From Terriglobales bacterium (GTDB lineage: Bacteria > Acidobacteriota > Terriglobia > Terriglobales > Acidobacteriaceae): 64,000 nucleotides of DNA. The notes beneath the pieces were generated by a model that ran no database searches, was not told where the DNA came from, and saw only the letters and a program-made list of their open reading frames with translations. Where the stretch lies: contig DASRER010000008.1 in assembly GCA_035651995.1 (NCBI GenBank), forward strand, positions 4,065-68,064, in the 5' to 3' direction. The translations under genes and the position numbers were made by a program. This document shows positions 2,327-23,177 of the stretch, in pieces (the stretch's first letter is position 1; each line of letters begins with the position of its first letter).

Positions 2327-3226
2327 TCAACTGGGTGTGTCGGCGAGAGCCTTCTGGCCGCACATTGCTTCGAGCGCCAAGATCAGCGCCTGAGTTCCCT
2401 TGCGGCCCGCCCCACAGCCGGCAAGCGCCTGATAAAGCTGCTTGGCCACTGCCAAGCCAGGGAGTGCGATCTTCATCGTCTCGGCTTCAGTCAATGCGAT
2501 CCCCATGTCCTTGATGAAGTGCTCGACATAGAATCCTGGTTCAAGGTCTCCCTTAAGGATTCGGGGCAATAGATTCTGAAGGCTCCATGAAGCAGCCGCC
2601 CCTACGCCAACGCTGGCAAGCACGCGTTCCGGGTCGAGCTTGGCGCTTCTGGCATACAACAATCCTTCCGCTAGGCCAACCATTGTGTTAGCCAGAAGGA
2701 TTTGATTCACCATCTTGGTGTGTTGTCCGCTACCGGCAGGTCCGTGCAGCACGATTGTTTTCCCCATTTTCTCAAGCAGCGGCCTGACCCGATTGAAGGC
2801 GGCTTCGTCTCCTCCGACCATGATCGAGAGGGCCGCGGTCCGTGCGCCGACGTCGCCACCGCTGACGGGTGCATCGAGCACGGCGACTCCGCGCTCGGCG
2901 CCAATGTTAGCGAGGCGAACCGCGAGGGATGGGCTACTTGTCGTACAGTCGATCGCCACTGTACCGGAATCCAGGGTGCTGAGAATCCCATTGTTGCTGT
3001 CGAGATAAATCGACTCGACATCGCGAGGGTACCCAACCATGGTGAAACAGACTTCGCTGTTCTGCGCCACGACCTTGGGCGTGTCAGCCCACGTGGCGCC
3101 TCGGGACACTAGCGGTTCGGCTTTCTGCCTGGTTCGGCTGAAGACAGTCAGTCTGTGTCCTGCCTGCAGCAGATGGCCAGCCATTGAGGCGCCCATCACT
3201 CCGGTTCCGATCCATCCGATATTCAT
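2327..3226 (-). CDS. NAD(P)-dependent beta-hydroxyacid dehydrogenase (3-hydroxyisobutyrate / tartronate-semialdehyde reductase family)
   Basis: 299 aa. Rossmann motif GWIGTGVMGASMAGHL, then DAPVSGG and GSGQHTKMVNQ, which are typical of this family. Confidence 0.85.
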   Translation of the reverse strand: MNIGWIGTGVMGASMAGHLLQAGHRLTVFSRTRQKAEPLVSRGATWADTPKVVAQNSEVCFTMVGYPRDVESIYLDSNNGILSTLDSGTVAIDCTTSSPSLAVRLANIGAERGVAVLDAPVSGGDVGARTAALSIMVGGDEAAFNRVRPLLEKMGKTIVLHGPAGSGQHTKMVNQILLANTMVGLAEGLLYARSAKLDPERVLASVGVGAAASWSLQNLLPRILKGDLEPGFYVEHFIKDMGIALTEAETMKIALPGLAVAKQLYQALAGCGAGRKGTQALILALEAMCGQKALADTPS

Positions 3227-4634: not shown

Positions 4635-4975
4635 GAATTCCCTTTGCGCTTGTTCCCACGACCCGCGCTAAAGTCTGTGCAGGGACCCGGGTGTGGTGTC
4701 CTTGCATCGGTTTTTCGCTTAGCGTTCTACATGATCTCTGGAGACAGAGGATTCGTCTGCTCCGTCCCGCGATTGAGAACAGGGTGCGACGGCGTGCTCG
4801 GAAAACGTAGTTCGTTTGTTTTAGTTCTTATCGCGCATGCGTCACCCCGAAAACCTCTGTTCCGCAGTTCGGGACAGAGTGGGAATGCAATTGACATTAT
4901 TTTGTGATCTGCCATCTTCCTTCCGAAAACGCCTCGCTCGCCGTCAAGAGAGCGACTGGAAGAGGAGTGGTTGTT

Positions 4976-7900: not shown

Positions 7901-8299
7901 AACAACAGCTTCATCTGCGACAATTCGAAGCAATGCTGGGAGCGTCCGAATGCGACCGGCGCACCACTGATCAATCCGAACTGGGAGACCGACCCGAAGC
8001 ACATCTACGTCAATGCGGCGGCCTTCAGCCAGCCCGCGGACGGTACATTCGGCAATCTCCCACGCAACGCCATTCGCTGGCCGTACACCAAGAACGTCGA
8101 TATGAGTGTGAGGAGAGCCATCCCAGTTACCGAGCGGGCCCACTTCGAGCTCCAACTGGATGCTTTCAACCTCTTTAATAACGTCAACTTCAAGCAGCCG
8201 AATGCGATCAAGCCCAGCGATCCCTCGACCCTCAACCTGCTTTCGCAGGGAACGCTTGGGCCTCGCCGGATGCAGGCGGCTCTGCGTTTCATCTTCTAG
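4976..8299 (+). CDS. TonB-dependent outer-membrane receptor with N-terminal carboxypeptidase-regulatory-like domain
   Basis: The ORF opens at 4904; the likely start is ATG 4976 (MAASIIRR...LVLMAMFPAGAYSQ signal peptide). It has a CarboxypepD_reg-like segment (GLVTDTSGAVAAGATVVVTESRTGYRREVRTNGEGTYSAP), a long beta-barrel and a terminal aromatic ...ALRFIF. Confidence 0.85.
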   Translation: MAASIIRRSERLGSWLLALVLVLMAMFPAGAYSQNTTADIFGLVTDTSGAVAAGATVVVTESRTGYRREVRTNGEGTYSAPRLQTGTYTIEVRLAGFSTARQTNIVLDAGDRREINVQLKVGAVSEVVDVVASLPTVETTSGVVRTSIDDVLVDRIPILGRNANNLIALVPGMTTGVQGDFASNGVRENSNSFRLDGTDNLDVFKSVAGRNPPPDSLQEFTIQTNYSAEFGHGGGAAVLAVTKSGTNQWHGSAYDYFQTSGWNANSWERNAQGLPRGALKQHQWGGSFGGPVIVPHLYDGRNKTFFFVNIQRLWAPSTAYLYHPGGLTAAELAGDFSQSAKVPVVSTSAANAPNSPFKGLAGQKITNLVPFLSPTAVKWYKLLGFPTVAVSGDNPVQSLNQAQDQPDYVVRLDQVLNHNNKVSASGYYFMNFPDPKQVDNAPLGFAQGNKLRDRHLSIVNVTTIGSTLVNEAAFGFTKIAQTQVANFGNADFASLGLAYPQLPNSFVGFNKLTPSQFGLNSPSFKDEVRSVTDFRDTVSFVKGRHLMKTGGAFQYQRIQQLIASNQNYLYNGQWLGNSAAEFLIGWPASFGSIQAPSNRNARIHYIDAFFQDDWKLRPNLTLNFGLRWEPHFWGHLTSDSALIFIPGAKSRFANFPSGTILTSDSASPNLSGQENDIYNFAPRVGVAYKLDSAGKMVLRGGWGLFFDATNGVHDGIDLNSDAFLQSFGTSFNLGYPGPEGWLDIFKYANLPVPNFSDLVKKIDPSQRVFNPNSGSPGIYKPGLELGYVHQYNVTFEHEFHPGWSYSVAYLGTQGVKLWGLDFWNLPVHKDSTDSWDNANLASRRPDQTYRLTDKAFIAANGSSSYNAFQVTVKARGRGPFHMLSHYTYSRAYSNIDGEFSKGDANGYGRGDPNNLDADWSPSVMDIPHRLVFAPSWESPYGKGRHDLIGLLVSNWSLTPVLTIQNGRLVNVLAAQNNSFICDNSKQCWERPNATGAPLINPNWETDPKHIYVNAAAFSQPADGTFGNLPRNAIRWPYTKNVDMSVRRAIPVTERAHFELQLDAFNLFNNVNFKQPNAIKPSDPSTLNLLSQGTLGPRRMQAALRFIF

Positions 8300-8362: not shown

Positions 8363-8379
8363 CGGGGGCCTCTCGCGCT

Positions 8380-9381
8380 GTGATAAAAACGGTTGAAAGT
8401 ATGTGCGAAACCAAGTCACAGCCTCGGCCGGCGCCGCACGCTGTAACTACCCAGCGCTTTCCTGAGATGGTCTACGTTCCGGGCGGCACGTTCCGGATGG
8501 GTTCGGACAAGCACTATCCGGAGGAGCGTCCCGTCCACCGGGTTGCCGTTGACGGATTCTGGATAGATCGCTTCCCCGTCACCAACCGGGCCTTTCGAGA
8601 GTTCGTCGAGTCCACCGGATACGTCACTTTCGCCGAGCGCACGCCCGATGCCAGCAAATATCCCGGTATTCCGCCGGAAGCCCTCCAGCCCGGTTCCCTG
8701 GTCTTTGTCCCGCCATCCTGCCGTGTGGACCGCGGCAATTATCTTCAATGGTGGGAATATCGGCCCGGCGCGAACTGGAAGCATCCTCATGGACCTAACA
8801 GTTCAATCGCAGACCTAGACGATCATCCAGTCGTGCACGTCACCTACGATGACGCGGAAGCCTTCTCAAAGTGGGCGGGAAAGTCACTACCGACGGAAGC
8901 TGAGTGGGAGTTCGCCGCCAGAGGCGGTCTCGACGGCGCCGAGTTCGCGTGGGGTAATGAGTTCCTTCCCTCGCAAAAGTATATGGCGAACACCTGGCAG
9001 GGTGAGTTTCCCTGGGAGAACCAGTTGCTTGACGGCTTCGGCGCCACCTCGCCGGTAGGAGCATTTCCGCCGAACGGATACGGCCTATACGATGTAACGG
9101 GCAACGTCTGGGAATGGACCAGCGACTGGTACCAGGGGAAGCACAAGCCCGACGCGGCCAAGCCTTGCTGCATCCCGAAGAACCCCCGGGAAGGACGCGA
9201 GGAGCAGAGTTACGACCCGGCGCATGCGGGTGGATTTCCGCGCCGCGTCGTAAAGGGAGGGTCCTTTCTCTGCGCGCCAAACTACTGTCTTCGCTACCGG
9301 CCCGCGGCGCGAATGCCTGAAGCGGTTGACACATCCACGTGCCATCTCGGATTTCGGTGCATCCTTCGCGATCCGCGCTAG
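8380..9381 (+). CDS. formylglycine-generating enzyme (SUMF1/FGE family)
   Basis: 333 aa. MVYVPGGTFRMGSD...ERPVHRVAVDGFWIDRFPVTNRAFREFV...GNVWEWTSDWY are FGE-sulfatase domain hallmarks. It lies directly upstream of a Cys-type sulfatase. Confidence 0.85.
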   Translation: MIKTVESMCETKSQPRPAPHAVTTQRFPEMVYVPGGTFRMGSDKHYPEERPVHRVAVDGFWIDRFPVTNRAFREFVESTGYVTFAERTPDASKYPGIPPEALQPGSLVFVPPSCRVDRGNYLQWWEYRPGANWKHPHGPNSSIADLDDHPVVHVTYDDAEAFSKWAGKSLPTEAEWEFAARGGLDGAEFAWGNEFLPSQKYMANTWQGEFPWENQLLDGFGATSPVGAFPPNGYGLYDVTGNVWEWTSDWYQGKHKPDAAKPCCIPKNPREGREEQSYDPAHAGGFPRRVVKGGSFLCAPNYCLRYRPAARMPEAVDTSTCHLGFRCILRDPR

Positions 9382-9508
9382 CGACCCTTGCGGCTTCCAA
9401 GTCTGGCGCCGAGTAGGCTGTTGAGAAGGCCAGAAGACTGTTCTGCCATGCGGAATGGAAGGAGCCACCCAGACCCTTCCCGTGTAGCATGCGCGTGGTG
9501 AATCGGGG

Positions 9509-11008
9509 GTGTCGATGTCACGGAGAACACGCAGAAGGTTCATCCGGGACTCAATTAAAACGCTAGGCGCCGCCATGGCAGCCGGACTGCCGCTACCATC
9601 GATGGCGAGCCAGCCAAGACGCCCTCGGCACCCGAACGTTCTGTTGATTATTACCGACCAGCAGCGCACCGATACGTTGGGATATCGCAGGCTCACCCCG
9701 TGCCGGACACCCAACTTGGATCACCTTGCCGCCGAGGGCGCTTCATTCGACCGCTGCCTCACGCCGACGCCGATCTGCTTGCCCGCGCGGACGGCATTGT
9801 TCACGTCGCAATACGGACATCAGACAGAAACCGTGCGGAACACGGACACGCTGACCGCCGAACCCATTCTTCTTACGAGGCTGAAGGCTAACGGGTATCA
9901 AGTCGACTACGCGGGGAAGTGGGGAATGGGGAAGTCCATTCCGAGCGGCTGGGTTGACCGCGCAGAAGCGAATGACACTGCCGAGTACAGCCGGTGGTGC
10001 GCGGAACAAGGCCTGGAAGATGGCTGGGCGTTCAACGATCCGAAGATGCATTCGCGGCGCGAAGACGTTTCCAGTCCTGCCACTGCGGTAAGTTCACTCA
10101 AGCCAGAGCAGACAAATGAAGCCTGGACGGTAGACCATGCGATCAAGCTTCTTAATACGCGCGATCGCAACCGGCCTTTTTTCTTGACCTGCGCGTTCCA
10201 AGGTCCGCACCCGCCCTTCAAGATTCCGGAGCCGTACTACAGCATGTACGATCCGGCGAGCATACCTGAGCCGAAAAACTTTGGGCCGACGCCGGGAGAG
10301 CCGGCCGCACTTTCACGCAGCTTTTATCGAACTGTATGGCGCGACCACGGCACCAGCTGGGGCGCATGGCGCAAGAGCGTCGCCGTGTATTGGGGGTTCG
10401 TGACGATGATTGATGCCCAGATCGGGCGACTCGTTGAACGGCTGCGCAGTGAAGGAATTCTCGACGAGACGCTGGTGGTTATGACAGCCGATCACGGCGA
10501 GCTGATGGGATCGCACGGGTTGTGGATGAAGTATCAAGCCTACGAAGAGTCCCTTCGCGTCCCATTGATCATCCGCGCGCCCTGGCTGTTCAAGCCGGGA
10601 TTGCGGACCCGGACCCCCTCTTCCCTGATCGACATTGCGCCCACTGTGCTTGCGGCCTGCGGTGTTGCTTCTCCAGCTGCGGTTCAGGGCGTCGATTTGT
10701 TTTCGTCAACGCGATCTGGTGGTCCGCGCCTGTTGTTCAGCGAGTTCACTCCTAAGGCGGATTGGCATGGTGTCGTCGACTGGCGGCTGGTCACCGACGA
10801 TCACTACAAGTACGTTTGGAATCAAGGCGACATCGACGAATGTTACGACCTCTCGGTCGATCCTTACGAGCTCACGAATCTGGCTAGGACAACGGCAAAA
10901 AAGGCCGTACTCCGTCGGCTTCAAGGAGAGCTGCGGGACTGGATGCGGCGAACCCGGGATCCACTGCTCGCAGACTTTCAAAGATCGCTTGCGAATGCAG
11001 CTGCATGA
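9509..11008 (+). CDS. Tat-exported Cys-type sulfatase
   Basis: 499 aa. Twin-arginine leader SRRTRRRFIRDS, PNVLLIITDQQRTD, a CxPxR FGly motif (CLPAR) and ADHGELMGSHGLW. Confidence 0.9.
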   Translation: MSMSRRTRRRFIRDSIKTLGAAMAAGLPLPSMASQPRRPRHPNVLLIITDQQRTDTLGYRRLTPCRTPNLDHLAAEGASFDRCLTPTPICLPARTALFTSQYGHQTETVRNTDTLTAEPILLTRLKANGYQVDYAGKWGMGKSIPSGWVDRAEANDTAEYSRWCAEQGLEDGWAFNDPKMHSRREDVSSPATAVSSLKPEQTNEAWTVDHAIKLLNTRDRNRPFFLTCAFQGPHPPFKIPEPYYSMYDPASIPEPKNFGPTPGEPAALSRSFYRTVWRDHGTSWGAWRKSVAVYWGFVTMIDAQIGRLVERLRSEGILDETLVVMTADHGELMGSHGLWMKYQAYEESLRVPLIIRAPWLFKPGLRTRTPSSLIDIAPTVLAACGVASPAAVQGVDLFSSTRSGGPRLLFSEFTPKADWHGVVDWRLVTDDHYKYVWNQGDIDECYDLSVDPYELTNLARTTAKKAVLRRLQGELRDWMRRTRDPLLADFQRSLANAAA

Positions 11009-11076
11009 AGACAGAAGTTAGAGCCTTAGGTGTGAAGTTTGGGATCTTGTGTACGGGTTTTGGTTCCGATCAATAG

Positions 11077-11916
11077 ATGGACGAGGAGGTTCGAATCGTG
11101 TACCCACGCAACGTCACTAAGCAGAAACTGAAGAATGGCGAACATGTGTTCGGAATCTCGATCGGGGAGATGCGGTCGATCACGCTGCCCAAGATCCTGG
11201 CCGGGCTCGGATTCGATTTTCTCTTTCTCGATATGGAGCACGGCGCGGAGGGGTGGGAGACGATCAGCGAGTTGGTGTGGGCCAGCCGCTGTGCCGGGAT
11301 AGCGCCGATTGTGCGGGTTCCCGACACGGAGCGCTTTTACATCAGCCGGGCGCTCGACATCGGCGCCCAGGGCGTTATCGTTCCGCGGGTGGAGACAGGC
11401 GAGCAAGTGGACACCATCGTTGGGTACTGCAAGTATCCGCCTGAAGGGGATCGCGGCGCCGCCCTGGGTGGCCGCCACAGTGAGTTTCAGCCGATTGGCG
11501 ATCCACGCACGGCGATGCAGCAGGCCAACGATGAAATTCTGGTCTGCATTCAGATCGAGACGTTGCCAGGGCTGAACCGCGTGGAGGAACTGGCGAGCCG
11601 CCCGGGAGTTGACGTGCTGTTCGTGGGTCCACAGGACATGAGCATCGCGCTCGGGTTTCCGAACGAATGGAAGTCGGCTGCGCTCGATGAAGCTATTCGG
11701 AAAGTCGTGTCGGCTGCCGAGAGGACGAACCGGCAAGTCGGAATTCAGGGCCGCAATGTCGAGCTTTCCACCCGCTGGATGGGTTACGGCGTTCGCTTTG
11801 TCGTCTTCGGCAGCACTCTCATGTTGCTGACCGAAGCGGCACGTGCCGGGATGCAGGACTTGCGGCGCGTGGCTGCTGCGGGGCAAAGGGAGGCGCTGCG
11901 TGTCGGCGCAAAGTGA
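11077..11916 (+). CDS. HpcH/HpaI-family 2-keto-3-deoxy-acid aldolase
   Basis: 279 aa. GFDFLFLDMEHG, PIVRVP, ALDIGAQGVIVPRVET, YPPEGDRG and CIQIET are typical of class II HpcH/HpaI aldolases. Confidence 0.85.
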   Translation: MDEEVRIVYPRNVTKQKLKNGEHVFGISIGEMRSITLPKILAGLGFDFLFLDMEHGAEGWETISELVWASRCAGIAPIVRVPDTERFYISRALDIGAQGVIVPRVETGEQVDTIVGYCKYPPEGDRGAALGGRHSEFQPIGDPRTAMQQANDEILVCIQIETLPGLNRVEELASRPGVDVLFVGPQDMSIALGFPNEWKSAALDEAIRKVVSAAERTNRQVGIQGRNVELSTRWMGYGVRFVVFGSTLMLLTEAARAGMQDLRRVAAAGQREALRVGAK

Positions 11917-12916
11917 AGTCGAGGCCACCCTCACCGCATCAGTGGAGAAGAGTCTTCGCCAAGGCCGTGAGTGGCTCGCCGGCTTGATGGATTCGGACGG
12001 CAAGATCGCCGGCAACGAAGCCGCCTCTCTTTATTACAAGGTCCCCGTGGCACTCGCCCTAAGTGGCGATGTTCGCGGCGCGCTGCGCAGCCTGGACTGG
12101 ATCGCGAAGCACCTGCTCACAAAGGAAGGCGCGCTCTCAGTGCCGAAGGAGCAATCGGAGGGACGTGCTTACGATCGCGGCTGGATGATCTGGGGTGCGT
12201 CCCTGTGCCAGCGCTACGACATCGCACTGCGCCTCGCGAAAGACCTCCGCACATTTCAGAATTCGTCCACCGGAGGATTCTGGGACAGCAGGAAGGAGCT
12301 CGCGGAGGGCCGCGGCAGGCACCACGCCATGACCGTGGGGATGGCAGGCTGGGGGCTGCTGGCCGCCGGCCGCGTGCAGGAAGCCAGACGCGCCGGCGAC
12401 TTTCTGATTGACTTGCTTGACCTTCAGCCGGCGAAGTGCGACCGGATCGCGTTGACAGTGCAAGCGACGAGGGACGGCCAGCAGCAGCTAGATCAGTCGG
12501 AAGATCCGAGCGACTACGTGGATTGCACGGCGGTCAGGCAGCGGCCTGCCCGCATCGGGCCGGCACAGGTACTGCTGGTGCGACTCTTCCAGTTGCTGGG
12601 GGATGAGCGCTATTTGAAGGCGGCCTGGGGCTATACGCTGCCGTTCCTGGATGGCCCAACCGGCATTTACGATTGCGTTGAATCTCACAAATTCCTGTGG
12701 GGCGTGCTCGAGTTGCACCGCGTGAATCCCGAGCCAAGACTTCGCGCAGCGGCGGAACGGAGTGTGGAGTACATCCTCTCGCGGCAGCGGTCCGATGGAC
12801 AGTGGCTTGCCGACGCGACCGGCGGCGGTGCTCAAGAGCAGTCGCTGGACCTGCGCTTGAATACGACTTGCAACGTTCTTGTGGGCTTCGCCCGCTACCT
12901 CCACCTCGCGGCATGA
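11843..12916 (+). CDS. alpha/alpha-toroid protein with QW motif (paralogue of the 3..545 product)
   Basis: The ORF opens at 11843. GTG 11900 is an equally plausible start, and either start overlaps the aldolase stop. YLKAAWGYTL...HKFLWGVLEL...VEYILSRQRSDGQW aligns with ORF 3..545. Confidence 0.6.
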   Translation: MPGCRTCGAWLLRGKGRRCVSAQSEVEATLTASVEKSLRQGREWLAGLMDSDGKIAGNEAASLYYKVPVALALSGDVRGALRSLDWIAKHLLTKEGALSVPKEQSEGRAYDRGWMIWGASLCQRYDIALRLAKDLRTFQNSSTGGFWDSRKELAEGRGRHHAMTVGMAGWGLLAAGRVQEARRAGDFLIDLLDLQPAKCDRIALTVQATRDGQQQLDQSEDPSDYVDCTAVRQRPARIGPAQVLLVRLFQLLGDERYLKAAWGYTLPFLDGPTGIYDCVESHKFLWGVLELHRVNPEPRLRAAAERSVEYILSRQRSDGQWLADATGGGAQEQSLDLRLNTTCNVLVGFARYLHLAA

Positions 12917-12940
12917 ACGCCCCCTAGGGGCACAAGTGGA

Positions 12941-14485
12941 TTGCCCTCGATGAGCGCGATGGTTGCGAGCTCTCAGAGAGCTGCATCTCAAGTCGGAATT
13001 GACATCCTGCGAAGCGGCGGCAATGCCGCTGATGCGGCGGTGGCGATGGCGGCAGCCCTCAACGTTACCGAGCCGTGTTCCACGGGCATCGGCGGCGACT
13101 GCTTCGCGCTTTATTACTCTGGGGGACAACTGACGGCACTGAATGGCTCGGGTCGTGCGCCCGCGGCTCTCACACGGGACCGCATCTCCAAGTTGTCGCT
13201 ATTTGATGCGAATTCGGTCACTGTTCCCGGCGCGTGTGCGGCATGGTTCGACTTGATCGCGCGCCATGGTTCGCTGCCGATGAAAGAGCTGTTGGCCCCA
13301 GCCATTCGGCTCGCGGAGGAGGGTTTTCAGGTCGAGCCGATCACGGCGCACTTCTGGAATGAAGGACTCCACTGCCTTACATCGCCGGAACTCACGATTG
13401 GCGGCCGCGCTCCGAAAGCGGGTGAAACGTTTAGAAATCCGGGACTTGCAAGGACCTTTCGCGCAATCGCTGACGACGGCCCAGAGGTGTTCTACCGAGG
13501 TCCAATCGCCGCAGCTATCGTCAAGGTGCTGCGTGAACGCGGGGCCGCGATGGCAATGGTGGATCTGGCGGCGCACGAGTCCAGCTGGGAAGACCCGATC
13601 AGCACGCCTTTTCGCGGAATGCGGGTGTGGGAATGCCCACCCAATGGGCAGGGAATCGCGGCATTGCTCGCGTTGAATATTTTCGACCAGTTCGACGCGC
13701 AGGGTGTGGAGCGATGGCATGTGATGATCGAAGCGATGCGGCTCGCATTCGAGGACGCGTGCTGGTACGTAGCCGACCCTGCGTTCTCCCCGACTCCAGT
13801 TGAAGAACTTCTTTCTCGTGAGTATGCGGCGGAGCGCGCGACCCTGATCCGGCTGGATGGCGTGCTCAGCAATGTCGGACCCGGCGCGCCGGTGTCGTGC
13901 GACACAACATACCTGTGTGTGGTTGACCAGCACGGGAACGCGTGCTCATTCATCAACAGTAACTACTTGGGATTCGGCACCGGCATTATTCCTGTCGGTT
14001 GGGGCTTCACGCTTCAGAACCGAGGATGCACATTCACGCTGGAGCCTGGACATGTGAATGAATTGGCTCCGCGTAAACGGCCGTACCACACCATCATCCC
14101 TGGCATGCTGACAAATGAATCCGATGGTACGCTGCTTGGCCCGTTTGGGGTCATGGGCGGATACATGCAACCACAAGGACACCTTCAAGTCATTGCATCG
14201 CTCAGCGATGGCCTTTCGCCGCAGGAGGCGATTGATCGGCCGAGATTTCGACTGGACCCTGCCTCGGCCAACGGAAAGGTCTATATCGAGGAAGGCATGG
14301 ACACTGACATCGCGAACGGCCTCCTCGAGCGCGGCCATGATGTGGTACTGAACATCGCCGGCTACGATCGCGTTATGTTCGGGCGCGGCCAAATCATCTG
14401 CCGACGCGAGGGGGGCAGTCTGGTTGGCGGCAGCGATTCACGCGCTGACGGCTGCTGGATGGAAATGGCGGACGAACAAGCATGA
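12941..14485 (+). CDS. gamma-glutamyltransferase-family Ntn hydrolase, no signal peptide
   Basis: 514 aa. GGNAADAAVAMAAALNVTEPCSTGIGGDCFALYY, the autoprocessing/nucleophile Thr context DTTYLCVVDQHGNACSFINSN, and GFGTG. Confidence 0.85.
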   Translation: MPSMSAMVASSQRAASQVGIDILRSGGNAADAAVAMAAALNVTEPCSTGIGGDCFALYYSGGQLTALNGSGRAPAALTRDRISKLSLFDANSVTVPGACAAWFDLIARHGSLPMKELLAPAIRLAEEGFQVEPITAHFWNEGLHCLTSPELTIGGRAPKAGETFRNPGLARTFRAIADDGPEVFYRGPIAAAIVKVLRERGAAMAMVDLAAHESSWEDPISTPFRGMRVWECPPNGQGIAALLALNIFDQFDAQGVERWHVMIEAMRLAFEDACWYVADPAFSPTPVEELLSREYAAERATLIRLDGVLSNVGPGAPVSCDTTYLCVVDQHGNACSFINSNYLGFGTGIIPVGWGFTLQNRGCTFTLEPGHVNELAPRKRPYHTIIPGMLTNESDGTLLGPFGVMGGYMQPQGHLQVIASLSDGLSPQEAIDRPRFRLDPASANGKVYIEEGMDTDIANGLLERGHDVVLNIAGYDRVMFGRGQIICRREGGSLVGGSDSRADGCWMEMADEQA

Positions 14486-17355
14486 CGGGCATCTACCGCG
14501 CCTGCATCCGTACCTGCGTAGCCATCGGGCTTGCGTCCATGGGGATGATGAACAGCAAGCCAGTTCCGTTGGTATGGAATCAATCGTCATTCGAGGACTT
14601 CCGGAAAGGACGATTGGAAGACGGAGGCGCAAACACCTATGTTTCCCATCTGGGCCGGATTCAGCTCGTACATAGTTGGGACCTCAATGGAGACGGGAAC
14701 CTTGACATTGTTTTCGCGAATACGCATTCGCAAACGGAGAAGCTCGATGCGGTGATTTATTGGGGTAATGGCCACGACTTCGACAATCGGCGCTCCTCTC
14801 CGCTGCCAAATGACGGTGCGCAATGGACGGTGGCCGCGGATCTGGATGGCGATGGGGTATCCGAGTTCATCGTTCCAAACTACACGAATGGCACCTGGGA
14901 TGGCATGCCGTCCTACGTGTATCGCGGTGACTGGTCCGCTTACAGGAAGTCCGACCTGAAGAAGGGCACGGACGTTTCCCACCTGCTGGGGCGGACCGAG
15001 CTTCCCACGCGCGCGGCGCAGCTAGCCGCAGTCGGCGACCTGAATCGCGACGGCCACATGGACATTGTTTTTGCGCAATCAGCCGGCTTTTGGGAGTACC
15101 GCGCGGGAGGCGCTCGAGGTGATGCGTACCTGTCGCCAAGCAGGATTTATTGGGGAGGAAGCGCGGGCTTCGACAAGGCACGGTTTACCGACCTGGAAGC
15201 AGCAGGCGCGACTGCCGTTGCGATTGCCGATCTGGATCGCGACGGCTGGCCCGACGTGGTCCTTGCGAATCGCGAGCGAGACGGCAACTTTGAGGTGGAC
15301 TCTTTTGTCTATTGGGGCAGCGAGAAGGGGTACAGCAAGGAGAGGCGATCCGCCCTGCCGACCAACCAAGTGAACGCGGTGCAAGTCGCCGACGTGAACG
15401 GCGATGGCTACCAGGACATCGTTTTCGCCAACGGACGCGGTCCAGCGAGCTATGTCTACCTGAGCGATCGAGGGCATTTCGATCTGGCACGCCGGATTGA
15501 ACTGCCGAGCAGCGACGCACGAGGCTGCGTGGCCGTGGACTTCAATGGCGACGGGTTTGTGGATATTTTCATTGCCAATCACGAGAGGGCCGGAAACCCG
15601 TTCACCCTGTCGTACCTGTATTGGGGCGGCAAGGATGGGTTTTCGCCGAAGCGACGCCAGTCCTTTCAGACGATTGGTGCTTGGGGAGTTTCTACGGCTG
15701 ATCTCAACGGCGACGGTAGACTCGACCTGGTCGTTTCCAACTATGGCGAGCACTACTCGTACGACGTGGCGTCTTACATCTATTGGAACTCGCCGAGTGG
15801 CTTCAGCGACAGCCTCAGAACGTCCATCTTCACTCACGGCGCCGTAGGCAACACAATCGGCGACTTTGATGGCGACGGTCACCTCGACATTCTGTTCAAC
15901 AACACCATGAGCGGAAGCCGCGGTCTGGGATCAGGTTCCGTCCAGGTGTACTGGGGAAACCCGGCAGGGCAGTTTTCTGTAAGGGACCGGATCGAATTAC
16001 CGGCACTGGATCCCTACCAGTGGGCGGCGGCGGACTTGAACGGCGACGGTTGGCCCGACCTGCTCGTCGCGAACATGGACGAGGTTGGGCGCAAGCTTAC
16101 TGAAAGCTTTATCTATTGGGGTAGTCCGGAAGGATTCAGTGTAGAACGGCGTTCGGCGCTGGTAAGTCCGGCAACGTGCGGTGTCGGCGTCGCCGACCTG
16201 GACCGCGACGGATACCTCGACGTGATCTTCTACACCCGCGATCCGGATCCAAAACTGGGCATCATCATTTATTGGGGAGGACCGAATGGTTTCGTTACTA
16301 CGGAGCGCACCGGGCTGCCCAACTACGGTTCGGGCACCGTGAAAATCGCGGACCTGAACCATGATGGGTTTCTTGACATCGTCGGACATTCCAATTCGGC
16401 GGCCCACACGGCGGTCGTCTACTGGGGCGATGGCACACGCAACTACAATGCAGAGCGCTCGTTTTCCGTGCCGGGCAGCGAAGGCGCGTCGAATTCCGAG
16501 ATTGCCGATCTGAACCGCGATGGATATCTGGACCTGATTTTGACGCGCAGCGTCTGGAAGAACGACCGTCGAGCCACATCGTTTGTTTACTACGGGAATG
16601 CGCGCGGCGTGTTTGGCGCAGACAATCGCCAGGAATTTGAAACGGTCGGGACGCAGGAGGTCACCGTGGGAGACCTCAACGGCGATGGATGGCTCGACGT
16701 TGTCTGCCCGAATTACAACAACAATCAGAGCCGGGCGACCCTCTCCCGTGTTTACTTCGGCGGCCCGAACGGGCTAAGTGCAAGGTCTATGTTGCAACTT
16801 CCAACTAACGGCGGCACGGGAAGCCAGATCGCCGATTACAATCACGACGGCTACAACGACCTGCTGCTCACCTGCCATAGGTCCGAGGGGGATCCACGCC
16901 GTGTCGGCATCTTCGGCGAGCATCAGACAGACACCTTTCTATATTGGGGCAGCGCACACGGCCTTTCGCCAGCACGCCGGCTCCTGATCCCGTCGAAGGG
17001 CGCTCACTATGACAGCGGCGTGGATCTGGGCAACATCTACGATCGCAGTTTCCAGTTTGGATACGTCTCCCAAGCATTTGAATTCCAGCACAGGGCCGGT
17101 GGGCGCATCGAATGGGTCGCGCGTGAGCGGCGCGGCAGCAAGGTGCGCTTCCAGGTGCGCACTGCCGCAACCGCGGAGGCGCTTGAAAGGGCAGTTTGGA
17201 CCGGTCCGCGTGGCGTCGGCAGCTACTACGAGGTCAGCGGCAGCCCCCTGCATGTGAATGCGGAGCACTCCTGGATCCAATATCGCGCCGTGCTCGTTTC
17301 GCCAAACGGCTCCACATCGCCCGCATTGCAGCAGGTTCGCCTCACATTTCAATAG
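14482..17355 (+). CDS. FG-GAP repeat protein (14 repeats, predicted double 7-bladed beta-propeller) with C-terminal beta-sandwich-like domain
   Basis: 957 aa. I count 14 copies of the D(L/V/F)(N/D)xDGxxD(I/V/L) motif (DLNGDGNLDIVFAN ... DYNHDGYNDLLLTC). Most copies are followed by a (Y/I)YWGxxxGF...R..LP segment. The start ATG overlaps the GGT stop (ATGA). Confidence 0.8.
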   Translation: MTGIYRACIRTCVAIGLASMGMMNSKPVPLVWNQSSFEDFRKGRLEDGGANTYVSHLGRIQLVHSWDLNGDGNLDIVFANTHSQTEKLDAVIYWGNGHDFDNRRSSPLPNDGAQWTVAADLDGDGVSEFIVPNYTNGTWDGMPSYVYRGDWSAYRKSDLKKGTDVSHLLGRTELPTRAAQLAAVGDLNRDGHMDIVFAQSAGFWEYRAGGARGDAYLSPSRIYWGGSAGFDKARFTDLEAAGATAVAIADLDRDGWPDVVLANRERDGNFEVDSFVYWGSEKGYSKERRSALPTNQVNAVQVADVNGDGYQDIVFANGRGPASYVYLSDRGHFDLARRIELPSSDARGCVAVDFNGDGFVDIFIANHERAGNPFTLSYLYWGGKDGFSPKRRQSFQTIGAWGVSTADLNGDGRLDLVVSNYGEHYSYDVASYIYWNSPSGFSDSLRTSIFTHGAVGNTIGDFDGDGHLDILFNNTMSGSRGLGSGSVQVYWGNPAGQFSVRDRIELPALDPYQWAAADLNGDGWPDLLVANMDEVGRKLTESFIYWGSPEGFSVERRSALVSPATCGVGVADLDRDGYLDVIFYTRDPDPKLGIIIYWGGPNGFVTTERTGLPNYGSGTVKIADLNHDGFLDIVGHSNSAAHTAVVYWGDGTRNYNAERSFSVPGSEGASNSEIADLNRDGYLDLILTRSVWKNDRRATSFVYYGNARGVFGADNRQEFETVGTQEVTVGDLNGDGWLDVVCPNYNNNQSRATLSRVYFGGPNGLSARSMLQLPTNGGTGSQIADYNHDGYNDLLLTCHRSEGDPRRVGIFGEHQTDTFLYWGSAHGLSPARRLLIPSKGAHYDSGVDLGNIYDRSFQFGYVSQAFEFQHRAGGRIEWVARERRGSKVRFQVRTAATAEALERAVWTGPRGVGSYYEVSGSPLHVNAEHSWIQYRAVLVSPNGSTSPALQQVRLTFQ

Positions 17356-17490
17356 CTCTTCAATCGAGCACACCACAATGCAATCATCTTAGGCGGTTTT
17401 CACGGGTTTCTTGGTTCCACATGACGGGATACAGGGCAGGGAAGAACTCTGTGTGTGTAGCATGAGCGGGAACGAAGGCGACGAGGTGAG

Positions 17491-20400
17491 TTGATGAAGC
17501 GTCGTGACTTTTTCCAGGGTGGCATCGCTTCGCTGGTGGGCCTCTCCGGATTGCTGCGCGCAAGCAACTGGCAGGCGGCGCCAGCCACAGAAATGCCGCC
17601 CCCCGCAAAGGCCCCTGGCACCTACAGCACAGCGGAGCGCCACCTATTGGGATGGGGCTGGAGAGAAGCTCCGCATGGACAAACCCTGGCGAGCGACGTG
17701 CTTGGCCAGCTGGTTGGAGGCGACCCTGCGCGACCGCATTACGGCTTGTACGGCCCCAACGGCGGCGCCAATGACCGCGGCTTTTTCTTCTACGCCGCGA
17801 TGGGACGCACCGATACCGTCACCGGCTTGGCCGCCCACCTCGGCCTTCGCAAACTTGCCGTGCCGGACACCTGGAACCATCGTGTGCTGCTGTTCGACCT
17901 GCGGTCGGATGGGTCGCTTGCGAGCCGTGTTGCCAGCGGCATCATCGGACAGGCGGCCTTCGACGCAAGAGAAATCGGCCAAGGCCCGGGCGGGCTGCAC
18001 TATCCCGCCGCGTGTACGTTCGATCCGAATGGCCGGTTCCTGTTTGTGGCCGACGAGCACAACAATCGCGTCCTGCAATACGACATGGCTTCGCTGCAGC
18101 GTGCCGTAAGGGTGTACGGCCAGCCTGACTTTGACTCGTGGGGCTACGATGCACAGCCGGGGGATCCAAATCGCGTCCTACGGGACTCGTTGCGCAGCCT
18201 TTATGGCTACGATGGCCCCTTCCCGTTGCATCGCCACCCGAGTCCTCGCGGGTTCTTTCTCCCCAGCGGATTGGCGTGCGACGGCAAGCGGTTGTTCGTC
18301 TCTGACTGCGACAACCATCGGGTACTCGTCTTCGACATCAGCGGTACGGAAAACGGGCCGGCGGCGATCGCTGTGCTCGGACAGCCCGACTTTGATGGAT
18401 TCAAGCCGAACCGAGGCGGTGCGGCGGGCCCGACGATCAAGCTGATGGCAAGCTCCGACCGGGAGAGCCTGAACAATTTCTACGGAAAACCAGGTCCGGA
18501 CACGATGCTGTTTCCAACCGGACTTGCCCTGGATCGCACGCATCGTTACCTCCTCGTCGCCGACTGCCAGAACGATCGCGCACTGGTATTCGACGTTGGC
18601 AAGGAGATCCGCAACGGCATGCCAGCGGTGGCTGTCGTACGAAAGAATGACGACGTTCCGGCTGAGTGGCGTCCCGCCGACAAGGACTTCAAGGGGATCG
18701 TGGACGTCGTGGTTGATGAGACCGATCGCGTTTTCGTATCGGACCGCAAGGGACTGAGAGTTCTTGTTTACAGTTTGGCATCGATTCTCAGCGGAAAACC
18801 CGCACCCGAGGCTGCACTCGGGCGCTTCGAGATGCTGACTGACTTGGAACAGGTGAAGGGCCTCGGCAAGGCGGAAGGACCTACCGGTCTGGCAATAGCC
18901 GGTCGGTTCTTGTACGTAGCGGAACCGCGTGCCAGCCGCGTTTTGTGCTACGACACATCGCACCCGGCTCGCCGTGCCGTGAATGTACTCGGCCAGTCGT
19001 ATGCTGGTGACTCGGCGCGACCAAGCTACAACCAGTACGGGCACAATGGCGGAGCCAATCCCTACGGTTTTAGTCTGATTGACGGCGTCCCTGGGATCTC
19101 GGTGAGCGAAGACGGCCAGTGGCTGCTGGCTTCGGACAGCGTAGGTGGCCGCGTGCTGTTCTTCCCGCTGGCCAGCGATGGACTGCCTCTGGATCGGTAC
19201 GCGCGTTTCACGCTGGGTGCACCAGACCTGACGACACAGGTTAGCAACTATGGCCCGGATCGCTTTGCCCGACCGTGTTCCAGCGTGATGACCGCAGATG
19301 GCCGGGTCTTCATCACCGACTTCAGCGGCGCACGAATTCTTTACTTCGAGCTACCAGGTCTGACGGCGGCGTCCGGGAAGGGTGCTCTCGATCCACTGCG
19401 GCCGAATTTGCCGTCGCCCGACGGCGCAACGGTTGCGGGAGGTGCTCCCGGCATGCGAGGAACCAAAGATAACCTCTTATTTCATAGTATCACATGCGGA
19501 GCTGCCGCGAAGGCCGTGCTCGGACAGGTGGACTTCTACACCAGTTTGCGAAACGCAGCATCGATCAGTCAGCTAGGAAAAGAAATCAGTGGATTGGCGT
19601 TCGACCGAAAGCGGGGCTGGCTCATCATCACTGATAAGCAGAACAATCGCGTAGTGATCATGGATGTTAGCAAAGGTGTGAAAACCTTTATGCCGGCTTT
19701 CGCGGTTCTCGGCCAGGCCGATTTTGACAGCAATGGCCCGTATCGCGGGAAGGCCATAAGTGACAACGATCACGACCGTGTCTTCATCGCGAACGACTCG
19801 ATGGGCGAGCGCGCCACCAAGCCCGCAGAAAAGAAAGTGCCCTGGCATCCCGCGGGATTGAAGGAACCCAAAGGCGCGGCGTACGACCATGTGACGCAGA
19901 TGTTTTTTGTGGTCAACGACGGGCGCGAGATCCTCGGATTTGATCTCTCCGGTCCGATCACCAACGGCATGGCGCCTGCCATTCGAATCGGCGGGGCGCA
20001 CTCAACCGTCGAAACCGACCTGCCATTTGTGGGCGAATGGCTGGGCATTGACGAGGAGCGACGGCGGCTGTGGTCCGACGGATTCGCCCTGGACATCTCC
20101 GGCAACATCCGGAAATCCGTTCCGCTGATTGGACAGCTTGGCGATGCCGCGGACCGAAGGAAGCGGCCCGAAATCGCGGAGCCGCACGGCGGTCCGAAAG
20201 CGGACCAGCTCGGTTACTCAGTGCCTGCATGCCATCGCTTCGGCGGAAACATCGACGCCCTCGCCGTCAATCCTCGAACGGGAACCGTCTACATGATGGA
20301 CAATGCTCGATTCCGCGTGCTGTGCTTTCAACCGGAATTCAAGTTCGACTCTGAACCGCTCAGGTTCACGATCGGCGCCCCAGCAATCGGCCTGACCGGA

Positions 20401-20595
20401 ACCGGCGGCATGGCACCGCTCAACTTCACCCTCAGCCAGGGCGCGCTTCCGCGAGGTCTGACGATCGACTCAAAAAACGGCGTCATCAGCGGTAATCCCT
20501 CGGACCGGCCCGGCGAGTATCGCGTTGAGATCAGCGTTAGGTCGGCGTCGGGAAACGTGCAGGGCGACCGTCACATAGTCTTGGAGAAGGCGTGA
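17491..20595 (+). CDS. Tat-exported NHL-repeat protein with C-terminal Ig-like (He_PIG-type) domain
   Basis: 1034 aa. Leader [14 protein letters not shown]. At least 10 NHL-like blades ([53 protein letters not shown] ...). C-terminal [27 protein letters not shown]. Confidence 0.8.
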
Positions 20596-20650
20596 CGCCG
20601 CAAGCCTTCGCAAATGCGTTTCAACTCGGTTTCTGCGCGGAGGCCCTTTT

Positions 20651-21412
20651 TTGACATCTTTTGATCTGGGGCTTGCGACGCTTGCCGCGTTCGGCGCCGG
20701 TCTGGTGAACGCCATCGCGGGAGGGGGAACCCTTCTCTCGTTTCCGGCGCTGATGGCTATCGGTTTGCCCGGCGTTTCGGCGAACGTCACCAGCACGGTA
20801 GCGCTGTGGCCGGGATATCTGGGCGCAACGCTAGCGCAGCGTTCCGATCTTCGAGGCCAGGGCCACCGCCTGTGGGTGATGCTGCCCGTTGGAGTGGCCG
20901 GCGGCATACTCGGCGGACTCCTGTTGCTGCACACTGGCGAGCGCGCGTTTCGCTCGCTGGTGCCGTTTCTCATCCTGCTGGCTTCGACCCTGCTCGCGAT
21001 CCAGGACTGGGTCCGAGGATGGTTGCTGCGCAAGAGAGGCGCGGAAGCCGCGGGATCGGAGTCACCGATGTTGGCTGCCGTGCCGGTCGGCGCGGCGGCT
21101 ATCTACGGCGGTTACTTCGGGGCAGGGCTTAGCGTCATCATCCTCGCAGCGCTCGGCGTCCTCCTAAAAGACACGCTGACGCGTCTCAACGCGCTGAAAC
21201 AGTCGATTGCTCTAGCGGCAAATATCGGCGCCGTGTTCTTGTTCGTCCCCTCGGGGCATGTCGTCTGGACGGCTGCGCTGTTTATGGCGTTGGGTGCGAT
21301 TGCCGGCGGGGCGATTGGTGGTCGCTTGGCTTCACGGATTCAGCCTCGTACGCTCCGCTGGTCCGTAGTGGCGATAGGGGTAGTTGTCGGTGGTATCTAC
21401 CTGCTGCGATAA
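20651..21412 (+). CDS. TauE/SafE (DUF81) family anion (sulfite/organosulfonate) exporter
   Basis: 253 aa, about 7-8 TM segments. [24 protein letters not shown] and a second half [15 protein letters not shown]. Starts on TTG. Confidence 0.8.
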
Positions 21413-21488: not shown

Positions 21489-23177
21489 TCACACTCCGGT
21501 CGTGTCGGCGGGACCCGTGGCCCCGGGACTTCCGGCGGCGAGATAGCCGTTGCTGGCGCCGCTTTCTGATGGACTGACCCAGAACGAATAGAGACTGGCA
21601 TTGCGCAGATGGAATCGGAATCGCATTGGCGTATTCGAGAGGCGCGCTACATCGGTGGATTTCTTCCAGCACACTTGGTAGCGCGTGGAATCCACGCGAA
21701 TGGGAACGGAGTTCTCGCGCGTGTACGGCTCAATCGGCTTGTATTCCGCGTCAAGCGCTTCCACGCGCAACTCACCCTCGGGCGCTTCTACGTTAACGAA
21801 CAAATACTGGCCGCCAAACCGGAGTAGCCGCGTTGTGACGAACTCTTCTTCGCGTCCAGCATCCATCGAGGCGAAGCCGTCGCGGCGCAGTGTTGCCAGC
21901 CCCGTGGCGCACACGCCCGGCTCTTTCGAACCCGGCATCCCTTGTCGTCCACTGGTGTAAAAGAGCAGGCGATCACCCATGATCACGCAGCATCCACCGG
22001 TTGACTGTACGTTCCCGTAGTTCCAACTCTTCGGGTCTTCCGAAACTGGAATGAAGGGCTCACGATTTGGCCGGTGCCAGTGGAAGCCGTCCCGGCTGAA
22101 GGCGACAAAAAGCTGGTTGGGCTTTGGCCGCCCATTTCCGCCTTCGCCCGTCCAGATTGCGAACAAGCCAAGCAGAATACTTTCATACGCCACTGCGTCG
22201 AGATTGTAGAGCTCTGGGTTGACGCCGTATTCAGGCCGCGGTTTGTCGAGCCAGTCCGCGCCCACCCACTGCAGCGGCTCTCCCATGCTCCACTTTAGTC
22301 CCTCAACCACGTCGGGGTGCTCGCGATACCAACGCCGGCGTCCATACAGGCGCGACGTGGTGGCTTTTATGCTGTAGACCCAAACTTTCCTGAACGGATT
22401 ATAAAAAGCCGTGCAGCGATCCCCGGTTGGCCCGCTCTTTCCGACGGGACCGGTCCAATGAATGCCATCGGGGGAGAAGAACAACGACTGCTGCCGCGTG
22501 TTCTCGGGGCGCTGATAGGCGAACATTTTGTAGCGCTGCCGCGGGTTCGATTCGAACAGGTCGAGCCAAACCACCGTGGAGTCCCGACCGAACGTGCTCA
22601 CGATGTTCGTGCCCGGGACTACGTCGAGACTGGGCTTGGTCCAGTGCACTCCGTCGGTGGACGTGGCGTGACAGGTGTACCGGTCTACACCGCCCATGTA
22701 CCACATCTTCAACGTTCTATCTTTCGGGTCATACCAGACGCCGTCGCTGAAAGGCATGGCGCGCGCCGCCGGCACTTCCTTCTCAACCGCTTCACTCTCC
22801 CACGGCTTGTCCGCGACCACGATCGGGTTTTCCGATCCGTACTTGGCGCAATGGTAGCGGCGCGTGAGCCTGGACGGCTCGATCAGGTAGTCATCAATGA
22901 AAAGTTGACGGCCTACATCAATGGGGATGATGTCCGGAATGTAGTGTAGGTAGGGCACCATCATCGGCTCGCGCGTCGGCACGGTCGTGTAACGCGGAGG
23001 CCATTCTTTGGGCAGGACGATCCCGTTATGCAGCTGTTCGCCGCCTGGCGACGTGGCATTGCCGCCTGATGAAGGCGTAGCTGCCTCTTCCGCGCGCATC
23101 CAGGGCGATAGGGCTGCGGTGCCCAGAAGTGCTGACGATTTCTGAAGGAAGCGGCGGCGGTCCTTGAAGTGCGGCAT
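21489..23177 (-). CDS. Tat-exported beta-propeller glycoside-hydrolase-like protein (GH32/43/130-type fold; family not resolved)
   Basis: 562 aa. Leader KDRRRFLQKSSALLGTAAL. Blades such as WYDPKDRTLKMWY, ATSTDGVHWTKP, FFSPDGIHWTGP and AFSRDGFHWHRP. A C-terminal beta-sandwich follows. Confidence 0.55.
   Translation of the reverse strand: MPHFKDRRRFLQKSSALLGTAALSPWMRAEEAATPSSGGNATSPGGEQLHNGIVLPKEWPPRYTTVPTREPMMVPYLHYIPDIIPIDVGRQLFIDDYLIEPSRLTRRYHCAKYGSENPIVVADKPWESEAVEKEVPAARAMPFSDGVWYDPKDRTLKMWYMGGVDRYTCHATSTDGVHWTKPSLDVVPGTNIVSTFGRDSTVVWLDLFESNPRQRYKMFAYQRPENTRQQSLFFSPDGIHWTGPVGKSGPTGDRCTAFYNPFRKVWVYSIKATTSRLYGRRRWYREHPDVVEGLKWSMGEPLQWVGADWLDKPRPEYGVNPELYNLDAVAYESILLGLFAIWTGEGGNGRPKPNQLFVAFSRDGFHWHRPNREPFIPVSEDPKSWNYGNVQSTGGCCVIMGDRLLFYTSGRQGMPGSKEPGVCATGLATLRRDGFASMDAGREEEFVTTRLLRFGGQYLFVNVEAPEGELRVEALDAEYKPIEPYTRENSVPIRVDSTRYQVCWKKSTDVARLSNTPMRFRFHLRNASLYSFWVSPSESGASNGYLAAGSPGATGPADTTGV

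Follow-up and report, generated by a model that had tools for sequence, protein, structure and literature searches.

A possible catabolic island resembling polysaccharide utilization loci and built largely from uncharacterized families in a Terriglobales bacterium

Polysaccharide utilization loci (PULs) and related clusters that combine TonB-linked uptake with carbohydrate-active enzymes (CAZymes) and sulfatases are known from Bacteroidota, with analogues in Planctomycetota, Verrucomicrobiota and Acidobacteriota. Soil Acidobacteriota, together with the Planctomycetota and Verrucomicrobiota that carry the families described here, are major degraders of complex polymers, and much of their degradative gene content is without an assigned function. 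We examined a stretch of 64,000 nucleotides (the window) from a Terriglobales bacterium (assembly GCA_035651995.1, contig DASRER010000008.1, positions 4,065 to 68,064), in which a co-directional array joins a pyruvate aldolase, an AprG-like toroid protein, a GGT-family hydrolase, a propeller protein referred to here as FG-GAP950, a tandem NHL propeller protein with a C-terminal Ig domain (NHL-Ig protein) and a TauE-family transporter. The run of genes that contains this array resembles PULs in that it is led by a TonB-type outer-membrane barrel, includes a sulfatase along with its maturation enzyme, lies near a local regulator, and interleaves exported, putatively degradative proteins with cytoplasmic sugar-acid enzymes. 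Unlike a canonical Bacteroidota PUL, it has no SusD-family match among the 14 window genes scanned (576-23177) and no glycoside hydrolase (GH) or polysaccharide lyase (PL) Pfam family above threshold in the cluster. Its exported proteins are instead a 14-blade FG-GAP protein, a tandem NHL propeller and a member of a GH130-like family (here Tat562), and its modules are shuffled between relatives. The island is built largely from uncharacterized families; its general type (PUL-like) is already known. With modest confidence, we favour the reading that it serves, in the manner of a PUL, the catabolism of a sulfated glycan whose sugars include amino or acidic ones.

An earlier note, made from the sequence alone, had described the six genes from the aldolase to TauE as one tightly coupled unit. 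Open reading frame (ORF) and Pfam scans recovered all six on one strand, each at its proposed position and in its proposed family, and direct reading of the sequence agreed with every junction that had been described. The toroid start overlaps the aldolase stop (17 nt between the probable GTG at 11900 and the aldolase TGA at 11914-11916), a gap of 24 nt precedes the GGT gene, the GGT and FG-GAP950 genes meet in an ATGA at 14482-14485, and gaps of 135 and 55 nt precede the NHL and TauE genes, respectively. On the other hand, the unit had been drawn too narrowly. The co-directional run comprises nine genes (4904-21412) and opens, before the aldolase, with a TonB-type outer-membrane protein (OMP), a formylglycine-generating enzyme (FGE) and a Cys-type sulfatase exported by the twin-arginine (Tat) route; the gaps that follow these three upstream members are 80, 127 and 68 nt. 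Flanking the nine genes are NanE, an IclR regulator, a GarR-like reductase and LarA, and the convergent Tat562 gene follows downstream (Table 1). We lean towards regarding the array as the core of a larger island that occupies approximately positions 1-23200 of the window.

Table 1. Features of the island (positions in the window)
Feature	Position	Strand	Basis
Second AprG-like toroid paralogue, 3' part	3..527	+	tblastn, 25% identity to toroid residues 161-332
NanE, putative N-acetylmannosamine-6-phosphate 2-epimerase	576..1271	+	NCBIfam NF002231, 243.7 bits (cutoff 189)
IclR/KdgR-type transcription regulator	1508..2311	+	NCBIfam matches under cutoffs
GarR-like beta-hydroxyacid dehydrogenase (tartronate-semialdehyde or sulfolactaldehyde reductase type)	2327..3226	-	NCBIfam TIGR01505, 247 bits (under cutoff)
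LarA-family nickel-pincer 2-hydroxyacid racemase/epimerase	3357..4634	-	NCBIfam NF033504, 517 bits (cutoff 460)
Acidobacterial TonB-dependent-type outer-membrane barrel, first of run	4904..8299	+	Pfam OMP_b-brl_4, E 1.7e-162; CarboxypepD_reg
FGE, no signal peptide	8380..9381	+	Pfam FGE-sulfatase, E 1.2e-83
Tat-exported Cys-type S1 carbohydrate sulfatase	9509..11008	+	Pfam Sulfatase, E 3.5e-47; SGSH_C
HpcH/HpaI class II pyruvate aldolase	11077..11916	+	Pfam HpcH_HpaI, E 1.5e-29
AprG-like (alpha/alpha)6 QW toroid, 338 aa	11900..12916 (ORF from 11843)	+	weak SQHop_cyclase_C QW-type match; PDB AprG
GGT-family Ntn hydrolase, 'cephalosporin acylase'-like subgroup	12941..14485	+	Pfam G_glu_transpept, E 6e-136
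FG-GAP950, 957 aa, 14 FG-GAP blades and C-terminal beta-sandwich	14482..17355	+	Pfam FG-GAP_3, E 3e-75
Tandem NHL propeller protein with C-terminal He_PIG Ig domain, Tat-exported, 1034 aa	17491..20595	+	Pfam NHL, E 1.6e-20; He_PIG, E 3e-12
Weak terminator-like hairpin, then CTTTTTT	20628..20650	+	terminator scan; total such sites in region at chance level
TauE/SafE (TSUP) family anion transporter	20651..21412	+	Pfam TauE, E 2e-36
Tat562, 562-aa Tat-exported GH130/GH32-like 5-bladed propeller with C-terminal beta-sandwich	21489..23177	-	no Pfam family; family profile against PDB

Co-occurrence in other genomes was approached from the FG-GAP, toroid and NHL proteins, and 43 loci were examined; loci from relatives are given below by our own numbers. 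In L021 and L022 the order is IclR ... sulfatase-aldolase-toroid-FAD_oxidored (twice)-FG-GAP, with identities to the window proteins of 58% (IclR), 65% (sulfatase, upstream of the aldolase-toroid pair in L021), 67% (aldolase), 60% (toroid) and 70% (FG-GAP). L023 brings together NanE (69%), IclR (53%), the aldolase (69%), the toroid (55%) and FG-GAP950 (70%), along with two FG-GAP paralogues and a TauE-family gene, and it is there that the NanE orthologue (69-70%) adjoins the aldolase. L031 contains orthologues of the GarR-like enzyme (74%, located 18 nt upstream of the NHL orthologue here and in L032), NHL (66-67%), the aldolase (71%), Tat562 (69%) and GGT (71%), and additionally two Tat562 paralogues, two FG-GAP950 paralogues and SSF and MFS transporters. 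Over all loci, aldolase orthologues of 67-72% identity were found in L021, L023, L030 and L031, and IclR orthologues of 53-59% in L021 and L023. In L041 the closest FG-GAP950 orthologue (70-72%) lies directly between orthologues of the OMP (55%, upstream) and FGE (69%, 3').

Among further FG-GAP950 loci, L036/L037 (FG-GAP950 60%) have a Tat562-like gene adjacent to FG-GAP950 as well as FAD_oxidored genes and an SGSH_C sulfatase, and L042/L043 (61%) a beta-helix protein, a Tat562-like gene, MFS, HpcH, PhoD and a TonB barrel. The FG-GAP gene of the planctomycete Fontivita pretiosa (57%) is immediately preceded by HpcH, Glucosamine_iso, 2-Hacid_dh and GlcNAc_2-epim genes, and after it come five genes that are GH32N/GH43-like or unassigned. 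Among 25 independent FG-GAP950 loci, a Tat562-like gene lies within 10 kb in nine, across phyla, and is the most recurrent neighbour; HpcH does so in six (including Fontivita) and a sulfatase in five, with FGE in one more. Other neighbours were DHDPS-family lyases, TonB receptors, SSF/MFS transporters, aldo-keto reductases, BNR_2, beta-helix proteins, SGSH_C-type sulfatases and FAD_oxidored. The most recurrent pairs were the aldolase next to the toroid, directly 5' of it in five of eight independent toroid loci, and FG-GAP near Tat562.

A fixed six-gene operon is not what these loci contain. The six families occurred together, or in the order seen here, in none of the 43, and at most three had orthologues in one locus (aldolase, toroid and FG-GAP, or aldolase, GGT and NHL), accompanied by orthologues of the flanking genes. 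Around NHL homologues at ~50% identity, the neighbours were unrelated and none of the other five families was among them. The co-occurrence that the earlier note had proposed to look for thus held for five families, which re-cluster at 53-74% identity in reshuffled arrangements, and failed for TauE and for the six-gene order. In relatives, an FG-GAP module (OMP, FGE, sulfatase, aldolase, toroid, IclR, NanE) is separate from an NHL module (GarR-like, aldolase, Tat562, GGT), so that GGT and NHL fall in a different cluster from the FG-GAP orthologue, which speaks against a six-gene unit; judged by orthologue content, the window is a merger of both modules around a single aldolase. Gene neighbourhoods therefore support a looser, reshuffled functional gene set. 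The suggestion that the families are functionally linked, in a combination that matches no characterized pathway, is upheld by the re-clustering of the 53-74% orthologues.

We considered whether the array might simply consist of unrelated co-directional genes, in which the short gaps and the 4-nt overlap reflect genome compaction and the re-clustering reflects dense, large paralogue families (FG-GAP950, Tat562, sulfatases). Such a reading would fit the facts that gene order is conserved in no other locus, that distant homologues lack the partners and that TauE is not conserved; moreover, FG-GAP950 occurs two to three times per 20 kb in several loci, so that chance proximity to some paralogue is not rare. 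However, the genes that re-cluster are the closest orthologues (53-74%) and not arbitrary paralogues of 25-35% identity, and low-copy families (HpcH, toroid, GGT, NanE, IclR, GarR-like) re-cluster in at least three arrangements. The recurrent adjacency of aldolase and toroid noted above, and the recurrence of the FG-GAP/HpcH link in a different phylum, also count against chance. We regard this explanation as unlikely.

Concerning the substrate of the PUL-like catabolic island that we prefer, the earlier note had suggested a gamma-glutamyl- or sulfo-modified polymer. Nothing beyond the GGT-family gene itself pointed to the gamma-glutamyl part. The sulfate part gained a sulfate-ester link from the adjacent FGE and Cys-type sulfatase. 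The sulfatase carries the Tat motif RRTRRRF and, as its C-x-P-x-R motif, CLPAR, the target motif of FGE, and the PDB entry nearest to it is 6pt4, an exo-2S-iota-carrageenan sulfatase (E 2.8e-64); a C-x-P-x-R sulfatase together with FGE constitutes a formylglycine-dependent S1 sulfatase system. Taking into account NanE, the AGE-type and NagB-like genes of Fontivita, the DHDPS and HpcH lyases and the sulfatases, a sulfated glycan with amino or acidic sugars seems the best candidate.

In the route that we propose from these tool-assigned families, the TonB-type outer-membrane barrel would take up oligosaccharides. In the periplasm, the sulfatase, which FGE would mature in the cytoplasm before Tat export, would strip sulfate from the polymer, and FG-GAP950, presumed to be a metal-dependent carbohydrate-active enzyme, would depolymerise the glycan along with the NHL-Ig tandem propeller and Tat562. 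In the cytoplasm, the HpcH-type class II aldolase would release pyruvate and an aldehyde from a 2-keto-3-deoxy sugar acid, and the translationally coupled toroid would carry out another C-C reaction, retro-aldol or transaldol, with an N-acetylhexosamine-like product as its substrate. The GarR-like reductase, LarA, NanE and the signal-less GGT-type amidohydrolase would finish the pathway under IclR/KdgR-type control.

The closest described relative of the toroid is AprG, and Fan et al. reportedly assigned AprG in 2023 as an octose-forming aldolase/transaldolase. GlcNAc or GalNAc serve AprG as two-carbon donors through C2-C3 retro-aldol cleavage. The window toroid has the same length as AprG (~340 aa) and aligns with it over the full length, residues 12-312 to residues 12-308, with E-values of 1e-13 for the single sequence and 2.4e-20 for a family profile (PDB 9c95, 9lfq). 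Squalene-hopene cyclase and prenyltransferase beta subunits, the (alpha/alpha)6 toroids to which both are related, came next in the PDB match list. Toroid and AprG have in common the Y-K, GGF, R-Q..G.W (QW) and second Lys positions, with two lysines aligned. They differ in that sequence identity is low and that the toroid stands in a catabolic context (aldolase, sulfatase, FGE, IclR, GGT) and not in an aminoglycoside gene cluster. PMC11033246 names AprG as the aldolase responsible for the bicyclic octose of apramycin; beyond that sentence, literature searches on the AprG mechanism, PDB 6N1A/9C95/9LFQ and FG-GAP in polysaccharide loci gave nothing usable.

The most likely start of the toroid is the GTG at 11900, which lies behind GGGAGG. 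The protein belongs to no Pfam family. A word-indexed search returned 35 homologues, and the wider superfamily comprises 795 representative clusters at E<=1e-3; a metagenome scan with the single toroid sequence found nothing, and its repeat with the family alignment found five loci. At this locus a protein of the rare AprG-like kind is paired with a pyruvate aldolase, and the pairing is conserved. A relationship of the toroid to GlcNAc 2-epimerase (AGE) was also considered and was rejected (hhalign probability 0.6%). In L023 (9595-9909) and L024 (863-1177), a short ORF of 87-91 aa stands directly 5' of the toroid, and its likeness to Tat562 is confined to the C-terminal beta-sandwich of the latter (residues 447-549, 42% identity). 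In L029 (9958-12414) the toroid frame runs on to 818 aa with approximately 480 extra residues that have no Pfam family, possibly a fusion or else an assembly or frame artefact.

The aldolase side of the pair also has described counterparts. A class II HpcH aldolase accompanied by a beta-hydroxyacid dehydrogenase recalls the GarL/GarR (glucarate) and YfaU (2-keto-3-deoxy-L-rhamnonate aldolase) pathways. An aldolase ahead of an (alpha/alpha)6 protein, with NanE close by, recalls the Bacteroides-type sialate route, in which a lyase is paired with an (alpha/alpha)6 GlcNAc 2-epimerase; a true GlcNAc_2-epim gene occurs in the HpcH-led run directly upstream of the Fontivita FG-GAP gene. Unlike in these end pathways, the window aldolase falls under every equivalog cutoff (NCBIfam models for HpaI, GarL and rhamnonate aldolase), the toroid is not detectably related to AGE, and no NanA or NanK was seen.

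AprG, the only characterized relative of the toroid, is a biosynthetic enzyme, NanE can serve sialic-acid-type biosynthesis, and surface and adhesion proteins often contain FG-GAP, NHL and Ig modules. These points raise the alternative of a biosynthetic cluster, in which the aldolase and the toroid build a higher-carbon or ulosonic sugar, NanE supplies ManNAc-6-P, and the product decorates an FG-GAP/NHL-Ig surface structure. However, there is no glycosyltransferase, nucleotidyltransferase, flippase or polymerase among the genes between 576 and 24444. The neighbours are of catabolic kinds (TonB barrel, FGE and sulfatase, IclR/KdgR regulator, GarR-like reductase, LarA), and relatives have SSF/MFS importers, DHDPS lyases and NagB-like and AGE enzymes. 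We judge a biosynthetic role to be quite improbable.

We return to the catabolic reading and to FG-GAP950. The earlier count of 14 repeats was exact: 14 D-x-[ND]-x-DG motifs occupy residues 67-785 with a period of ~54 aa, and the regular segment said to follow most of them, here (L/I/V)Y(W/Y/F)(G/N), stands after 12 of the 14. A confident AlphaFold2 (AF2) model (pLDDT 88.8, pTM 0.82) is all-beta to about residue 840 and ends in a beta-sandwich, and with the Ca-binding loops and the ~54-aa period it has the features of an FG-GAP (integrin-alpha-type) propeller. In a Foldseek comparison of the whole chain with the PDB, which bears on whether the 14 blades form two closed 7-bladed propellers, the best TM was 0.36 or less, with DDB1 deltaB, aldos-2-ulose dehydratase (4a7k) and GH74 at ~0.3; CRTAC1, Bap1 and integrin alpha-V were other generic matches. 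CRTAC1 was the sole sequence-level PDB match (E 1.3e-6) and also the best local fold match (TMt 0.45). The structure predictions that had been proposed for the FG-GAP and NHL proteins thus gave all-beta models, and the accompanying structure searches returned generic multi-propeller matches and no functional analogue. FG-GAP950 shares Ca-loop FG-GAP blades with CRTAC1/ASPIC-UnbV, Vibrio Bap1/RbmC and integrin alpha, and differs from known FG-GAP and propeller proteins in its 14 blades with a C-terminal beta-sandwich, its fixed length of ~950 aa and its conserved H82/H799/H814/H842.

More than 2600 homologues make up the FG-GAP950 family; their length is uniform at 940-970 aa, and their annotations go no further than VCBS or FG-GAP repeat protein. 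As nearly all of 42 aligned homologues (~39, by reading) carry Sec or lipoprotein signal peptides, FG-GAP950 is probably exported. In the alignment, which reaches down to 26% identity, H82, H799, H814, H842, D848, R855, R751 and Y745 are conserved outside the Ca loops; of these, the four His, D848 and R855 are located in blade 1, within blade 14 or beyond it. This pattern suggests a possible metal or catalytic site, and the histidine cluster, conserved across phyla, is the reason why we propose a metal-dependent carbohydrate-active enzyme. If catalytic, FG-GAP950 would define a new CAZyme family. The locus links this very large family of one architecture to sulfatases, TonB-type uptake and sugar-acid aldolases. 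The invariant loop E205-Y206-R207 is the sole internal segment of the model with pLDDT <50. Genes of the PF12831 FAD_oxidored family, often in tandem and with GIDA-like genes, adjoin FG-GAP950 in L021, L023, L031 and L036/L037; the window has none.

Tat562 resembles GH130 mannoside phosphorylases/hydrolases and GH32-type 5-bladed propellers in its repeated S-x-D-G-x-x-W blades and C-terminal beta-sandwich, and differs from them in being Tat-exported and in matching no Pfam or CAZy-type model above threshold. Its family profile matched PDB 6n1a (E 1.2e-10), partial regions of GH130 mannoside phosphorylases (1.8e-7 to 1e-4) and, weakly, GH32 and GH117 enzymes; Pfam Glyco_hydro_32N appeared at E 0.03. 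Through this locus, the GH130-like family emerges as the most recurrent neighbour of FG-GAP950.

A more specific form of the catabolic reading would combine three claims: (a) FG-GAP950 is a new, widespread, exported metal-dependent carbohydrate-active family with a 14-blade FG-GAP scaffold as its fold and a His site formed from blade 1, blade 14 and the linker, (b) it works with the new GH130-like family on sulfated glycans, and (c) the HpcH aldolase and the AprG-like toroid form a new cytoplasmic route for successive retro-aldol cleavage of an amino-sugar or ulosonic-acid skeleton. Jointly, the three make a tentative proposal, doubtful as a whole though with a real chance of being right. Claim (c), if true, would give the AprG fold its first catabolic role. 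FG-GAP950, Tat562 and the aldolase/AprG-like pair are clonable targets for enzyme discovery.

Several observations weigh against the catabolic reading. No gene of the array matched a curated glycoside hydrolase or polysaccharide lyase family in Pfam, and no obvious inner-membrane sugar importer was seen in the window, SSF/MFS transporters being present only in relatives. The likeness of Tat562 to GH130/GH32 is remote (E 1e-10 to 1e-2). As the whole-chain Foldseek matches of FG-GAP950 and NHL are generic (TM 0.36 or less), the two could be binding or scaffold proteins and not enzymes. The toroid-family invariants D92, R93, D107, H142, E261 and H263 are not found in AprG, so that the toroid chemistry may differ from that of AprG. 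Scans for sigma-70 promoters and terminators in the region were at or below the chance level, and co-transcription of the array is putative. The re-clustering comes from approximately three to four independent genomes, since L021 and L031 derive from one sample and L022 and L032 from its sibling. Finally, the FG-GAP search over one genome per GTDB species gave 16 full-length homologues of 26-55% identity from many phyla, and none of these distant loci had aldolase, toroid, GGT, NHL or TauE neighbours; Tat562 was the one recurrent neighbour shared with the window. On their own, these 16 loci would have led to a wrong rejection of the linkage. Closer orthologues are confined to metagenome assemblies.

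Among the remaining members of the array, the GGT-family protein has a full-length PF01019 (MEROPS T03) domain (Pfam positions 2-512 of 512) with a DTTY autoprocessing/Thr nucleophile motif. It had been described as lacking a signal peptide, and this was borne out, as the Pfam domain begins at residue 21 and leaves no room for one. The protein falls under the glutathione-type equivalog cutoffs (TIGR00066, 334.6 against 357.85; PRK09615, 195 against 990). Its closest solved structure is the Bacillus halodurans protein named cephalosporin acylase (PDB 2nlz, E 3e-129), which it resembles in the full-length match, the absence of a signal and the retained Thr nucleophile motif; unlike for 2nlz, its coding sequence here runs into the start of a gene for an exported propeller.

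For the NHL-Ig protein, the twin-arginine signal (N-terminus MMKRRDFF) and the C-terminal Ig-like module were confirmed, and the earlier figure of at least 10 blades agrees with 11 'D..N.R(V/I)L.FD'-type segments, corresponding to 11-12 blades. Its AF2 model (pLDDT 77.9) is an all-beta chain that ends in an Ig-like domain, and the predicted fold fits two 6-bladed propellers followed by the Ig domain. Foldseek matched NHL domains at TMt 0.72-0.77, and also tandem propellers.

TauE was rejected as a conserved member: no related locus has an orthologue, and the sole other TauE-family gene seen, in L023, was not similar to it by BLASTP. Its place beside the other genes is probably that of an unrelated or accessory neighbour. 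The terminator-like hairpin lies within the gap between NHL and TauE. A locus for a sulfonated sugar or an organosulfonate, as in sulfoglycolysis of the sulfoquinovose type, in which the aldolase releases sulfolactaldehyde, the GarR-like enzyme reduces it and TauE exports a C3 sulfonate or sulfite, would account for a TauE-family gene at the end of a run that has an aldolase and for the likeness of the reductase to sulfolactaldehyde 3-reductase (NF012005, 138 bits), but is very improbable, given that this score is far under the cutoff of 348 and the reductase is closer to tartronate-semialdehyde reductases, that no sulfoquinovosidase, sulfoquinovose isomerase or dehydrogenase family occurs among the genes scanned, that TauE is the sole member without a conserved association, and that the conserved sulfur enzymes are FGE and a sulfate-ester sulfatase.

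At the upstream edge of the island, the second toroid paralogue is truncated by the edge of the window and stops 48 nt 5' of NanE, and with it the toroid family is tied twice in the window to sugar-metabolism genes. The window LarA is echoed in L010, an Eubacteriales metagenome-assembled genome, where a LarA homologue (35% identity, 75-1337) lies directly 5' of an FG-GAP950 homologue (1664-4387). Between the OMP and FGE genes, 8300-8379 contains a long GC-rich inverted repeat (GCGCCTCGCCGC ... GCGGCGAGGCGC) without a T-run, which may be an mRNA-stabilising or attenuating hairpin. No Rfam match was found in positions 1-26000. The 10-mer GTGTAGCATG occurs at 9482-9491 and 17455-17464, 27 and 36 nt 5' of the sulfatase and NHL genes, both of which encode Tat proteins. 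An operator-like motif common to the intergenic regions was rejected, as matches of 9-10 nt, this one included, were about as frequent as expected by chance. The G+C content steps near positions 25000-26000 from 0.59-0.62 (1-25 kb, which holds the island) to 0.63-0.70 (26-64 kb), and judging from this step the island may have a history different from that of its surroundings.

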